Shown in pieces: positions 1 through 11,231 of a stretch of DNA of 34,379 bases. Source of the DNA: a virus (lineage: Duplodnaviria > Heunggongvirae > Uroviricota > Caudoviricetes). Position 1 is the stretch's first letter; the number at the start of each line of letters is the position of its first letter. A program made the translations under genes and the position numbers. The DNA lies in IMG/VR virus record IMGVR_UViG_2734482779_000009; one strand, given 5' to 3'. The notes under the pieces were generated by a model. It ran no database searches. It was not told the DNA's origin and saw only the letters and a program-made list of their open reading frames with translations.

Positions 1-153
1 ATGGCTACTAACAATAGCAAATGTGACACTTTTGATTCCAGTGAAAAGCCTGAGGGGCTGGTTGTTGCAACTGTCAGCAATTCATACAAGAAAAAGAGCT
101 CGTCAGGCACATCAAACAAACCAGAGCAATCCCCTCCCAAAGATAAGAAGTAG
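1..153 (+). CDS. Small Lys/Ser-rich ORF (50 aa) or 3' part of a gene cut by the window edge; hypothetical
   Basis: ATG at position 1, open frame to TAG at 151-153; AT-rich; converges on the 172..795 gene. No recognisable motif. Confidence 0.2.
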   Translation: MATNNSKCDTFDSSEKPEGLVVATVSNSYKKKSSSGTSNKPEQSPPKDKK

Positions 154-171
154 TGTTCATGCCTGATGGTA

Positions 172-795
172 TTACCGACAAACTCGTCGGATATCAACTC
201 TGGCAATCTGTTCTGCAGGTATATAGGTTGCCAGAGTTCCCCATCCGTCATCTGCCACACCACTATCGCATTCTGTCCAGATATTGCTCCCGACTGTAGT
301 CCGGTGCGTTACGTATAAGATTATATCTCCCTTATTACCTAACGTGACAGGACCGTTAGGCCGTCCTGCAAATCGCCCGGGTGCTCGTGAAAGTAAAACA
401 GAGCCATCCTTAAGATATACATAGATTTCAGAAAAAGTGAAATCCATCTGATTGAACAATGACTGCCACGCTGAATGAGTATCATCAGACCATGAGATGT
501 TTTGCTTATGCAGAAATTCATACATCCATTTGCGCCCGTATCTGCGCCACAACGCACCGTAAATAAAAGCGCAAAGAAGCGCTGGTGGCGTTGCCAGCCA
601 CGAATTCAGACCAGCCCACATAACAACCTGATAGACCATCATTGCCAGCAGACCAAAAACCAGCGCCGAAAAGGTCACCTCAATGGGCTTGTGATGGTCC
701 TTCAGCCCCACGTTAGCAATAAAATACCCGATATAACCACTTGTCAGCGTCACCAGTGTTGCCCAGGGCAGATTCAGCAGGGATGCATCAAACAT
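172..795 (-). CDS. Hypothetical membrane protein: three predicted N-terminal transmembrane helices plus a ~120-aa soluble C-terminal domain; candidate moron
   Basis: 207-aa ORF; GGAGGA about 8 nt upstream of the ATG; hydrophobic segments at roughly residues 11-31, 41-64 and 67-83; lies beyond the terminator that closes the mor operon. No family recognised. Confidence 0.6.
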   Translation of the reverse strand: MFDASLLNLPWATLVTLTSGYIGYFIANVGLKDHHKPIEVTFSALVFGLLAMMVYQVVMWAGLNSWLATPPALLCAFIYGALWRRYGRKWMYEFLHKQNISWSDDTHSAWQSLFNQMDFTFSEIYVYLKDGSVLLSRAPGRFAGRPNGPVTLGNKGDIILYVTHRTTVGSNIWTECDSGVADDGWGTLATYIPAEQIARVDIRRVCR

Positions 796-823
796 ATTTC
801 CTCCGGTGATATGTTTTTCTGCC

Positions 824-861
824 AGAATAAAAAAAGCGCAACAGGTTATCCATTGCGCTTT
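824..861 (-). terminator. Candidate rho-independent terminator at the end of the early (mor-containing) operon
   Basis: Inverted repeat AAAGCGCAA (833-841) / TTGCGCTTT (853-861) with an 11-nt loop; on the minus strand the stem is followed by a run of 7 T then AT (complement of the A-run at about 826-835). Confidence 0.45.
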
Positions 862-889
862 TCATAAACCGGGAATTTATTGACGCTCG

Positions 890-1123
890 TTAACACTTTG
901 GTGGCGGTGGTGGGTTACGTAAAACTTTCCCGTAATACAAAACACACTTTTCATCAGGCTCGATATGCAGGCGCGAGTTGTCAATCAGTCTGTCGCATTC
1001 CCTGAGAACATATCTCGCCTCAGCAGAAGTCAGACCGTCAAAAAAATGCCGGATAATTTCCATCGCCATATCTGCATGGTCTGCCTTCTTCAGGGAGGCG
1101 CTGTTGGGGGTTTTATAGCGCAT
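890..1123 (-). CDS. Hypothetical small protein (77 aa from the ATG; 79 aa from the upstream GTG) ending in PPPPPKC
   Basis: ORF-track ORF 890..1129; ATG at 1123 preceded by GAGGTG; last gene before the terminator; no recognised domain. Confidence 0.45.
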   Translation of the reverse strand: MRYKTPNSASLKKADHADMAMEIIRHFFDGLTSAEARYVLRECDRLIDNSRLHIEPDEKCVLYYGKVLRNPPPPPKC

Positions 1124-1140
1124 TATCACCTCGCTTTTGA

Positions 1141-1527
1141 TTAATCCCGACTGTCATCCGGTTCATCATCGTCTTCGAATAACTGCCCCTGTAACCGGCT
1201 GATTTCTTCCTTTCTTACGCGCTTTACCAGGTTGTAAATCCAGGGAACTGAAACCCTGAATCTGCGGGACAGTTCGTGGTGGTTACGTCCGTTAAACGCC
1301 TCATAGATTTCACGGTCACGCTGGCTTATCTTCCATCTCATCCCCATAGGAAAATAAACGTTTTGCCCGCCCCAGACCTGCATCATGCGGTTCGCGACGG
1401 CCTGACCAATCTGGTCGGCAACTTCGGGCTCAATATCAATAATCTCGCGAACGGTCTCAGAGGTATGCTGTGCCAGTTCCACCAGGAGTTCCGGCCCTTT
1501 ACTTCGAAACTGATTCAGGTCGCTCAT
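1141..1527 (-). CDS. mor: Mor/C-family transcriptional activator (middle/late gene activator)
   Basis: 128 aa; acidic end and C-terminal helix-turn-helix-like segment (ELSRRFRVSVPWIYNLVK) typical of Mu Mor/C; sits at the distal end of the early operon as in Mu. Confidence 0.75.
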   Translation of the reverse strand: MSDLNQFRSKGPELLVELAQHTSETVREIIDIEPEVADQIGQAVANRMMQVWGGQNVYFPMGMRWKISQRDREIYEAFNGRNHHELSRRFRVSVPWIYNLVKRVRKEEISRLQGQLFEDDDEPDDSRD

Positions 1528-1948
1528 GTTTTACTCCCGCAGCTCTGCGCTGCCACTTCTTCAGTTTCTCAATAACACTGCTTGCCTGTTCAGTATTGAG
1601 CCAGCGCAGGGCGCTGATGCCCGTTTCCCGCTTGATCCACCGCGCTAATGCATTTTCTGAACGGTCACGAACAATGCCTGCAGCAGCCATTTCAAGCCAT
1701 AGCGCACGAATTTTCCTGGACTGCGGATGGTCATCCAGCGGTAAACCGGAGCTGGCTTTTCTGGCAGGTTTAACCCGAAAGCCTTTCTTTTTCATGGATT
1801 CCAGCACGCAATTTAGTTGTGTGGTATCCATTCCTTTGGTTGAGGCTTTACCGGTCAGCCACTGTAACATCTGGCGGTAGGTGTCTTCATCCAGACCCAG
1901 TTCATTACGGGCAATATGGATAAGCTGAATCAGTCGTTTTTTCTGCAT
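1499..1948 (-). CDS. gemA: GemA/Mu gp16-like protein (DUF1018 family)
   Basis: 149 aa immediately upstream of mor, the Mu gene order; N-terminus MQKKRLIQLIHIARNELGLDEDTYRQMLQ resembles the GemA family as recalled. Confidence 0.6.
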   Translation of the reverse strand: MQKKRLIQLIHIARNELGLDEDTYRQMLQWLTGKASTKGMDTTQLNCVLESMKKKGFRVKPARKASSGLPLDDHPQSRKIRALWLEMAAAGIVRDRSENALARWIKRETGISALRWLNTEQASSVIEKLKKWQRRAAGVKHERPESVSK

Positions 1949-1949
1949 A

Positions 1950-2153
1950 TCAACCCCGCTTTTTCAGTCTGCCGGCAGCAATGTCAGTTGCAGCCGGCAG
2001 GGTGACAGGCCAGAACAGCATGACAGCTGTCATATACAGGATGTAATGCGCGGTGTCATAATGGTTACCGAAGCCCAGTGCATAATGAAGCCGGGCACTG
2101 CATAATCCTGCATATGTGTACCAGAAAAGAAAACAGGCAATAGTTTCAGCCAT
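1950..2153 (-). CDS. Small hydrophobic protein (67 aa), hypothetical
   Basis: Start moved to the internal ATG at 2153, which overlaps the upstream stop by 8 nt; two hydrophobic segments. Confidence 0.4.
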   Translation of the reverse strand: MAETIACFLFWYTYAGLCSARLHYALGFGNHYDTAHYILYMTAVMLFWPVTLPAATDIAAGRLKKRG

Positions 2154-10436: not shown

Positions 10437-10468
10437 CCGGAAAGCATTGTGCTTTCCGGTTTTGTTTC
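10437..10468 (+). terminator. Candidate rho-independent terminator downstream of the repressor gene, possibly bidirectional
   Basis: Stem CCGGAAAGC (10437-10445) / GCTTTCCGG (10451-10459), loop ATTGT, followed by TTTTGTTTC; sits between the convergent repressor and dam genes. Confidence 0.55.
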
Positions 10469-11231
10469 AGAAGTTGCAGATTACCAGTTCACGGCGCGGC
10501 GTGGGTTTCCCCGCCAGACTGTAGTTGATATTCACCGTCTGTATGTTCAGTTCAGTGAACACCCGACGCATCTGCGGAATGTCGTTCACCGAGATAATCA
10601 TCTTTCCTCTGATGCACCGGGCCAGTTCTGCGAGTAGTGTGTAGTTCTCTTCAGGAAAATCCACACCATAGCCTTCCGTCCCCAGATAGGGCGGATCACA
10701 GTAGAACAACGTGTGCGGACGGTCATAACGCTTAATGCACTGGTGCCAGTCCATGTGCTCTATCACCGTTCTGGAAAGCCGCAGGTGTGCCGCTGACAGT
10801 TCTTCTTCAATACGTAGCAGGTTGAAGCGTGGCGGAGATGTGGTGGATGTGCCGAAGCTGTGCTCTGCCACCTTGCCACCAAATGCCTGCTTCTGGAGGT
10901 AGTAGAACCGTGCCGCACGCTGGATATCCGTCAGTGTTTCTTCCGGGGTGATCTGCAGCCATTTGTAGATCTGCCGGCTAACCAGCGCCCATTTGAACTG
11001 GCGGATAAATTCTTCCAGGTGATGTTTTACCACCCGGTACAGATTCACCAGTTCACCATTGATATCGTTAATGACTTCGAGCTTGCCGGGAGTCTTGAGA
11101 AAATAGAGCGCAGCTGCGCCGCAGAACGGCTCCACATAACATTCATGCGCAGGAAACAGCGGCAGGATGTGTTTTGCCAGGCGGCGTTTGCCACCAATCC
11201 ATGGAACGATGGGTAATGTCTGCGTTTTCAT
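10467..11231 (-). CDS. dam: Dam-family N6-adenine DNA methyltransferase (orphan, phage-borne)
   Basis: 254 aa; WIGGK, FCGAAALYF (motif I) and catalytic DPPY (FYCDPPY) in the Dam order; no cognate restriction gene adjacent. Confidence 0.85.
   Translation of the reverse strand: MKTQTLPIVPWIGGKRRLAKHILPLFPAHECYVEPFCGAAALYFLKTPGKLEVINDINGELVNLYRVVKHHLEEFIRQFKWALVSRQIYKWLQITPEETLTDIQRAARFYYLQKQAFGGKVAEHSFGTSTTSPPRFNLLRIEEELSAAHLRLSRTVIEHMDWHQCIKRYDRPHTLFYCDPPYLGTEGYGVDFPEENYTLLAELARCIRGKMIISVNDIPQMRRVFTELNIQTVNINYSLAGKPTPRRELVICNF

Follow-up and report, generated by a model that had tools for sequence, protein, structure and literature searches.

The window analyzed here is a 34,379-nucleotide stretch of DNA from a virus of the Caudoviricetes (IMG/VR record IMGVR_UViG_2734482779_000009), and the subject of this study is an optional two-gene cargo cassette at its left end. 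The cassette occupies window positions 1..863 together with ~194 bp further to the left, bounded by the mor terminator on one side and by the transposition end of a prophage on the other. It comprises a gene for a 207-amino acid inner-membrane protein on the minus strand (172..795) and a convergent plus-strand gene for a 50-amino acid partner (1..153), the stop codons of which are separated by 19 nt. An intrinsic terminator of the early/middle (mor) transcript is located on the minus strand at 824..863 and consists of a 14-pair stem with a T7 run (863..831, -14.9 kcal/mol), which agrees with a preliminary description of the sequence that placed the end of the early operon at 824..861. Megablast analysis matched window positions 1..2000 with 100% identity to the genome of E. 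coli CFS3292 (NZ_CP026935.2, starting at 3758772), whose annotation includes a ~37-kb Mu-type, BcepMu-like transposable prophage between malZ and proY. The homology of malZ with prophage-free E. coli ends at L001 coordinates 7805/7806, which corresponds to window position -194. Thus, extension to the left located the prophage terminus 194 bp beyond base 1, and the studied region is within the prophage at its extreme end, not in host DNA, as anticipated when the genes were first assigned to a prophage end beyond mor.

The 207-codon open reading frame (ORF) coincides with a PGAP coding sequence and possesses its own ribosome binding site (RBS), as had been reported: a GGAGG Shine-Dalgarno (SD) element, read from the sequence, is positioned on the minus strand at 800..804, 4 nt before the ATG codon. 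The protein matches phrog_12870, a PHROG without an assigned function, with an E-value of 1e-96. The score against DUF6338 (PF19865) is 15.3 bits, below the Pfam gathering threshold of 26.5, whereas 13 of 33 homologues match DUF6338 at E<0.01 (best value 1.4e-6) and several database homologues carry PF19865. By these profile scores the protein belongs to a distant sister group of DUF6338 and is not a scored member of that family. A word-seeded search recovered 70 homologous clusters at 90% identity, and a full profile search yielded 521 clusters at 50% identity (E<=1e-3), almost all of which are single-domain proteins of 195-245 amino acids.

The architecture of the membrane protein was predicted with AlphaFold2 using a 33-sequence alignment (mean pLDDT 81.7). 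The model places transmembrane (TM) helices at residues 11-28, 37-60, and 65-97, and a beta-rich domain at residues 119-206, which matches the three helices plus soluble domain of the preliminary description. The N-terminal membrane part (residues 1-97) is encoded on the minus strand by 505..795, and the C-terminal cytoplasmic domain (residues 119-207), predicted to be a small beta-barrel of Sm/LSm-like type, by 175..441 on the same strand. The latter consists in the model of an N-terminal helix and a strongly bent five-stranded sheet, as in the Sm/LSm fold, and the linker around an invariant SWSD motif is poorly predicted. No LSM or Hfq Pfam match that would point to Sm1/Sm2 motifs was obtained for the window protein or its homologues, and a profile search of the PDB with the family alignment gave chance-level matches only, with nothing below E 0.6. 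In the alignment, TM1 is nearly invariant across the family and TM2 and TM3 are variable; the beta domain is characterized by the conserved motifs GP.TLG..GD..LYVTH and ATYIP..QI.R..IRR. Because the positive-inside rule can be applied to KDHHK in the loop after TM1 and to RRYGRK after TM3, the topology is inferred to be N-out/C-in and the beta domain would accordingly be cytoplasmic.

The small partner is a hydrophilic, probably disordered protein that terminates in SPPKDKK. Its start codon is base 1 of the window, and the preliminary description had considered that the ORF might be a fragment. This possibility is ruled out: the ORF is complete, an AAGGA SD element lies at -14..-9, and a promoter-like site (TTGAAA-18-TAGAAT, 10 of 12 matches) lies at -71..-42 (L001 7929-7958), both to the left of the window. 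A homologue of the partner is annotated by PGAP in strain SaT040 (WP_001571575.1), and the partner is left unannotated in CFS3292. The conservation of the pair was assessed in the 55 cassettes that were flanked by enough downstream DNA. A convergent partner ORF of 38-66 codons was present in 52-53 of these cassettes, which derive from both Gamma- and Alphaproteobacteria. A convergent ORF of ~50 codons follows the membrane-protein gene in every enteric variant, and a partner ORF is likewise found in the alphaproteobacterial loci, in 42 IMG/VR loci, and in three of four distant metagenomic family members. The distance between the two stop codons usually falls within -19..+44 nt.

The partner products are hydrophilic and of low complexity, with an N-terminal M-x-x-K/N stretch followed by one to three aromatic-x-P motifs that take the form DYSE.PK in enterics and (S/N)Y.P elsewhere. 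The tails are proline-rich and usually end in lysine or arginine, e.g., PPPPKK, PPPSPKKK, and PPAPLGKK. Amino acid identity between partners is low (12-33%), and their sequences evolve fast outside the short motifs. Nine of 28 partners matched phrog_15726, which has no assigned function (best E 1e-41), and a Pfam scan of the 28 proteins gave no family match. The two genes are conserved as a pair across very different prophages of Gamma- and Alphaproteobacteria. They present the arrangement of a toxin-antitoxin (TA) module, namely two adjacent, co-inherited genes, one of them small, that co-vary.

The distribution of the cassette was examined among related prophages. In a megablast search with window positions 1-2000, 640 E. 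coli genomes shared the mor-gemA part and only four shared the whole stretch. The homology of ~620 E. coli genomes ends near window position 1204, at the 3′ end of mor, and another E. coli group matches only from position 479 onward. A cargo-less junction, in which mor is joined directly to the phage end, was counted in 532 of 5,426 complete E. coli genomes using a phage-only query sequence from which host REP/cysA sequence was excluded, and a homologue of the 207-amino acid gene was present in 132 E. coli genomes. Strain 18044 illustrates the former arrangement: mor is followed by ~160 bp and then by the phage end, with zero genes between. No partner-like ORF was found at the cargo-less prophage end. 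Close E. coli relatives lack the cassette in ~80% of cases, and only mor and gemA were matched in PhiKM and KP12, two relatives that have been isolated. Beside conserved mor and gemA, the cassette is present or absent at the same junction in otherwise near-identical prophages, which together with a base composition modestly unlike that of the flanking phage genes is the pattern of a moron. The GC content over 1..1200 is 46.5%, compared to 50-52% in mor and gemA and up to 62% deeper in the early region, so the stretch is AT-richer as originally reported, but modestly. Because the cassette is absent from cargo-less E. coli prophages, PhiKM, and KP12, its genes are not required by the phage and are dispensable for the phage life cycle.

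The contexts of the homologues also were compared. The homologue (60-94% identity) without exception comes next after mor in E. coli, Proteus, Klebsiella, Citrobacter, Serratia, and Salmonella, at the end of BcepMu-like prophages that differ in their host insertion sites. Homologues in Alphaproteobacteria (28-46% identity) reside instead in unrelated prophage modules: between capsid and head-completion genes of an HK97-type head module, between tail genes, or beside serine recombinases or resolvases. The 207-amino acid gene behaves as a mobile accessory gene since its constant position after mor in enterics is set against these unrelated alphaproteobacterial contexts. A tblastn search of 50,697 phage records with the protein produced a single match, in Synechococcus phage Ssp-JY41. 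That homologue (32% identity) is at the extreme end of a 20-kb genome record (1-744), and the gene touches the record end. One full-length match was obtained in a search of plasmids, on a 16.6-kb Rhodobacteraceae plasmid. Overall, it is firmly supported that the membrane-protein gene 172..795 and the convergent small gene 1..153 constitute an optional, mobile cassette at the prophage end.

The phage association of the cassette raises the possibility that it is an auxiliary lysis-timing pair of the phage itself, in which a holin-like membrane protein is paired with a small cytoplasmic antiholin, comparable to the pairing of holin T with the cytoplasmic antiholin RIII in T4. The cassette invariably occurs in phage genomes, in some cases within late modules, and the TM part weakly matches many LydA and other holins in BFVD (Foldseek E 0.01-0.3, target TM-score 0.45-0.58). 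However, three-helix bundles match one another non-specifically; the BFVD fold search gave one real match, to an uncharacterized protein, and the others were non-specific and holin-like. Moreover, the prophage already has a lysis block at ~12.9-15.2 kb of the window, which is ~12 kb away on the opposite strand, no endolysin gene is adjacent to the cassette, and the strong terminator separates it from the early/middle transcript. The absence of the cassette from PhiKM, KP12, and most close E. coli relatives further argues against this role, which is considered improbable.

The signals that flank the two genes suggest that they are insulated from external transcription. A terminator scan identified five terminator-like sites compared to 1.8 expected in shuffled sequences, among which the mor terminator is by far the strongest. 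The 207-amino acid ORF begins 28 nt after the T-run of this terminator. A putative weak promoter for the gene is situated inside the terminator itself, with TGGATA at 847..852 and TATTCT at 824..829 separated by a 17-nt spacer. With 8 of 12 matches this site is below the threshold of the scanner and could be a terminator-embedded promoter. Across variants, the hairpin loop has TGGATA or TAGACC 17 nt upstream of the second half of this putative promoter. Most enteric variants have a terminator hairpin at this place, with a stem sequence that changes from lineage to lineage. In the E. coli, Serratia, and Proteus variants the hairpin is followed by a T-run and AT(T/G)CT; the Klebsiella variant has a T-run and ATTTTC, and in Citrobacter and Salmonella the T-run that goes with the hairpin is interrupted.

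On the other side of the cassette, upstream DNA was available for 12 enteric variants, and 10 of these retain the partner promoter 37-44 nt before the ATG codon. A 16-bp inverted repeat in which -73..-58 (L001 7927-7942) pairs with -12..3 (L001 7988-8003) joins the -35 region of this promoter to the SD element and AUG of the partner, e.g., CATTGAAATCATCCTT with AAGGATGATTCCAATG. The fold-back measures 14-19 bp across variants, with predicted energies of -16 to -27 kcal/mol in nine of ten variants. It is conserved in the Klebsiella, Serratia, Citrobacter, and Salmonella cassettes with some covariation: one pair is CG in five sequences and UA in four. Partner transcripts that initiate at the partner's own promoter would lack the upstream arm and the RBS would stay free, whereas transcripts that enter from host DNA would fold back and hide the RBS. 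The arrangement suggests that the terminator insulates the effector gene from the early operon, that the fold-back protects the partner gene against outside read-through, and that each gene may be driven by signals of its own, without dependence on the phage program. The ratio of the two products appears to matter, as in TA pairs, because both genes would be shielded from outside transcription in a phage that inserts randomly.

Two aspects of the sequence data point to an interaction between the two products. First, the net charge of the C-terminal region of the membrane protein (SWSD to the C-terminus) is anticorrelated with that of the partner in 31 non-redundant cassettes (Spearman rho -0.73, p 3e-6, in a calculation that ignores phylogeny). 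The anticorrelation holds within enterics (-0.71, n=13) and in the remainder (-0.79, n=18), whereas the charge of the TM part showed no significant correlation with that of the partner (-0.28, p 0.12). In several separate lineages, an acidic partner (-4 to -9) accompanies a domain that is neutral or positive. Where the partner is basic (+4 to +9), the domain is acidic (-6 to -10); the window cassette is of the type with a basic partner and acidic domain, and that of strain A20 of the type with an acidic partner and neutral domain. Second, the A20 allele retains the membrane part (97% and 83% identity), but the C-terminal domain is only 51% and the partner ~25% identical. The recombination breakpoint is near window position 479 (residue ~105), in the linker that connects the membrane part to the beta domain. 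No fewer than ten E. coli genomes are 95% identical over 479..1942 and carry a different C-terminal domain and partner. Because A20 swaps both while keeping the membrane part, the C-terminal domain and partner move as one unit, and the comparison of alleles indicates that recombination replaces the two together. Thus, judged from charge complementarity and co-inheritance alone, the partner probably binds the cytoplasmic Sm-like domain via its short linear motifs.

These data also bear on whether ORF 1..153 is translated. The low identity between partners (12-33%) and the convergent layout, which forces transcript overlap as in type I TA pairs such as txpA/RatA with its 3′ overlap, could signify that the region instead specifies an antisense RNA or a DNA signal near the phage end, and that the 207-amino acid protein acts alone. 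Nevertheless, the frame of 38-66 codons, its motifs, and the Pro/Lys tail persist in unrelated contexts where DNA similarity is gone, the SD element and ATG are at a conserved distance from a conserved promoter, and the charge complementarity is a signal at the protein level. Small proteins of analogous type also have been observed by mass spectrometry as described below. The antisense explanation accordingly is the least probable of those considered here.

A full-text literature search for DUF6338 found a sole paper (PMC10433244), which reported three new proline-rich proteins of 36, 47, and 41 amino acids encoded just downstream of a DUF6338 gene in Pseudomonas stutzeri. Digest-free mass spectrometry yielded 85, 114, and 44 spectra of these proteins, respectively, and the authors judged them to be species-specific (PMC10433244). 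By analogy, the spectra provide an experimental precedent for the production of such small proteins. The P. stutzeri loci resemble the cassette in that a membrane protein of ~200 amino acids of the same superfamily is accompanied by proline-rich ORFs of <50 codons; they differ in that three co-directional small ORFs are present there, in contrast to one convergent partner in a prophage-borne cassette that is distributed in two proteobacterial classes. Separately, the P. stutzeri DUF6338 gene is ~14 kb from a DUF1156 methylase and SNF2/PLD helicase pair (CP036186.1 2646334-2666699, PMC10433244 supplement). This location hints that DUF6338 genes outside prophages may sit in defense islands. The methylase and helicase genes are DISARM-like.

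The same paper, which places DUF6338 also in biosynthetic gene clusters, raised the idea that the small proline-rich protein is itself the active component (PMC10433244). Transposed to the cassette, the partner would be an antimicrobial-like or host-modulating peptide and the membrane protein an immunity, export, or sequestering factor. The (S/N)Y.P repeats and proline-rich tails are reminiscent of proline-rich antimicrobial peptides, but these peptides are cationic and many partners are strongly acidic (-6 to -9). There also is no signal or leader peptide, nor are there processing or export genes nearby, and the partner sequence evolves fast outside the short motifs. An active peptide consequently is very unlikely.

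Considered together, the observations are most readily accommodated if the cassette specifies an inner-membrane effector expressed in the lysogen and a small partner that binds the Sm-like domain and holds the effector in check, in the manner of TA, abortive infection (Abi), or exclusion systems. A probability of ~0.5 is assigned to this interpretation. The membrane protein might be an oligomerizing, membrane-perturbing, or channel-like effector, which is a guess, and the small, probably labile partner would keep it inactive. If the partner were lost or titrated, as might happen when another phage infects the cell, the effector would be released, and the outcome may be abortive infection, exclusion, or addiction. 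A more elaborate version is tentative and is viewed as clearly less probable: the cassettes may represent a new, prophage-spread family of two-component membrane Abi/TA systems in which a cytoplasmic Sm-like ring would gate an oligomeric three-TM pore, the disordered Pro/Lys-tailed partner would bind the ring and so hold the pore closed, the terminator and fold-back would protect the ratio of the products, and the 79-amino acid product of the neighboring early gene (see below) could override the system at induction.

The nearly invariant TM1 is relevant to an alternative in which the membrane protein keeps the DNA of incoming phages from passing the inner membrane, the cell survives, and the small protein has an accessory or regulatory function. 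Single membrane-protein morons at prophage ends classically act by such superinfection exclusion (Sie), with HK97 gp15, P22 SieA, and T4 Imm as examples. Near-invariance of TM1 would be expected if this helix contacted a conserved host or phage membrane component, and the gene is optional and mobile among prophages. However, exclusion of this type leaves the conserved Sm-like domain and its charge-matched cytoplasmic partner unexplained, as well as the careful insulation of both genes, and Pfam, PHROG, and PADLOC scans revealed no homology of the 207-amino acid protein to known Sie proteins. This alternative is unlikely, albeit the strongest of the rivals to an effector restrained by its partner.

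Several points weigh against an effector-partner system of the kind proposed. The toxicity of the membrane protein is an assumption. No match was found for the 207-, 50-, or 79-amino acid protein in PADLOC-DB v2 at E<=1, NCBIfam and Pfam scans of the three gave nothing useful beyond the weak DUF6338 score, and there is no similarity to any TA family or to any other Pfam family. The promoter of the 207-amino acid gene is weak (8 of 12 matches), and expression could come from read-through of the terminator during lytic growth. As the arms of the fold-back also are constrained by the -35 element and by the SD element and AUG, its conservation is only partly independent evidence. The correlation of charges does not take phylogeny into account, and neighboring genes are co-inherited in any case. 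Finally, the small ORFs of P. stutzeri are co-directional with the DUF6338 gene and not convergent.

The general kind to which the cassette belongs, a prophage moron that comprises a membrane effector and a small regulator, is already known, whereas the family, the pairing rule, and the architecture are undescribed as far as the searches made here show. The KS10/BcepMu paper (PMC2628397) contains nothing relevant on end genes. The cassette shares with phage morons its character as an extra block at a module boundary, with variable presence, putative signals of its own, and lower GC content, but it is a two-gene convergent unit without homology to characterized moron products. The moron concept is used here in the sense of Hendrix and Juhala, with the membrane-protein exclusion gene of HK97 gp15 as the exemplar. 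Membrane TA and Abi pairs likewise are prophage-borne and combine a membrane effector with a small regulator, convergent genes with overlapping 3′ ends, and signs of a protected product ratio. Membrane-effector systems of this sort include lambda RexAB, CBASS Cap15 with TM helices and a small beta-barrel, and the convergent, 3′-overlapping txpA/RatA genes. No homology to these pairs is apparent, and the regulator in the cassette apparently is a protein that would bind the cytoplasmic domain instead of an RNA or nucleotide signal.

Structural and regulatory parallels also can be drawn. As predicted for the 207-amino acid protein, MscS channels are N-out/C-in, with three TM helices ahead of an Sm-like beta domain in the cytoplasm. 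The resemblance is one of analogy only, with no detectable homology: MscS as a homologue was rejected by hhalign of the family alignment against the E. coli protein, which gave a probability of 0.05%, and there was no MS_channel Pfam match. The LSM14 LSm domain with a 4E-T peptide (PDB 6f9w) exemplifies peptide binding by a small bent beta-barrel, the fold that is predicted here, but the peptide-binding LSm proteins are eukaryotic and soluble and show no sequence similarity to the 207-amino acid protein. The fold-back resembles that of IS10/Tn10, where externally initiated transcripts are subject to fold-back inhibition: in both cases one repeat arm is upstream of the gene's own transcription start and the other covers the SD element and AUG, so that the RBS would be hidden only in read-through transcripts from outside. 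The cassette differs in that the fold-back putatively guards a cargo gene beside the phage end and not a transposase gene.

Prophage ends and module junctions are a source of many defense and fitness genes, and the DUF6338-like family of ~500 sequence clusters travels with a small, often unannotated partner. If the cassette is a defense or addiction module, it would furnish a new effector architecture, in which three TM helices and an Sm-like domain are regulated by a short linear motif, and a function for a Pfam domain of unknown function. If it proves to be without a phenotype, it is one more uncharacterized moron. The cassette also illustrates how a phage that inserts at random can protect its cargo from transcription arriving from either side.

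Between the terminator and mor lies a further small gene on the minus strand (890..1129), which specifies a 79-amino acid protein from a GTG start, or 77 amino acids from the ATG codon at 1123 as in the PGAP form (WP_072025250.1), and which ends PPPPPKC. The ORF begins 11-17 nt after mor and has its own GAGG element. Because it is upstream of the terminator at 824..863, the gene is in the mor transcript, of which it is the last gene, and it is a separate and much rarer insertion between mor and the cassette. The preliminary description had proposed that left-end morons beyond the terminator comprise the 207-amino acid gene together with this proline-tailed gene. The reading as optional cargo stands, as does the assignment of the 207-amino acid gene; the proline-tailed gene is on the other side of the terminator, and the true partner is ORF 1..153. 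Neither universal conservation with a known core function nor a location in host DNA, the two findings that would have undermined the proposal, was encountered.

Homologues of the 79-amino acid protein were confined to only one other 90% cluster with 26 members. Strain CUVET21-PYO5 has a 32%-identical, unannotated homologue at the same position that ends SPPPRD, and the two proteins share an IIRH..GL..A.AR..L..C core, two cysteines, and a PPP tail. The protein gave no Pfam, PHROG, NCBIfam, or PADLOC match, and tblastn against phages was empty; the AlphaFold2 model is unreliable (pLDDT 52.8). A role as a second late activator found no support, as no Mor/C or helix-turn-helix match was obtained. 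A proline run followed by lysine is seen in both small proteins of the region (PPPPPKC in the 79-amino acid protein and SPPKDKK in the partner). They may bind at a common site, or translation of both tails may depend on EF-P, and it can be speculated that the 79-amino acid protein binds the same domain as the partner during induction.

The mor gene (1141..1527, minus strand) encodes a Mor-family activator (PF08765, E 5e-41) and is the last conserved gene before the variable end. The other early genes on the minus strand specify a helix-turn-helix protein, DUF3102, a DDE transposase, an ExeA-type ATPase, Gam, DUF2786, and GemA/gp16, and their transcription heads to the left prophage end. The lysis, head, and tail genes are oriented rightward from ~12.8 kb, with a putative holin, an SLT transglycosylase, and neighboring genes in the lysis block. 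An inverted early region is typical of BcepMu-like phages.

The ends of the prophage in CFS3292 were defined as TGATCAGACATGAGATAAAT... at one terminus and ...GCGCATCA at the other. At the left junction the host sequence ...GGTGCCATGCAT adjoins the phage sequence TGATCAGACATGAGATAAATG..., and at the right junction the phage end ...GCGCATCA adjoins the host sequence ATGCATTTAACAT... The termini are of the TG...CA type with repeated GAGATAAAT sites and a 5-6-bp target duplication, ATGCAT. The insertion point is at malZ codons 3-4, where ATGCAT is duplicated (L001 7800-7812, window -200..-188; L002 27860-27885, to the right of the window). PGAP calls a full-length malZ gene in CFS3292 by means of a CTG start codon that is built partly of phage-end sequence. 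The native malZ ATG codon and promoter are displaced by ~37 kb and now are beside proY, and malZ therefore is probably silenced by the prophage insertion.

At the right end of the prophage (L002 24785-27786), a tail-fiber gene is accompanied by oppositely oriented fragments of fiber-assembly and fiber-tip genes and by a serine recombinase gene, which together are a Mu Gin-like invertible host-range segment. A DNA adenine methylase gene is beside the repressor region of the prophage (window 10467..11231), and one alphaproteobacterial prophage carries a methylase gene whose product is 42% identical directly upstream of a DUF6338-like gene (L021 5183-5941).

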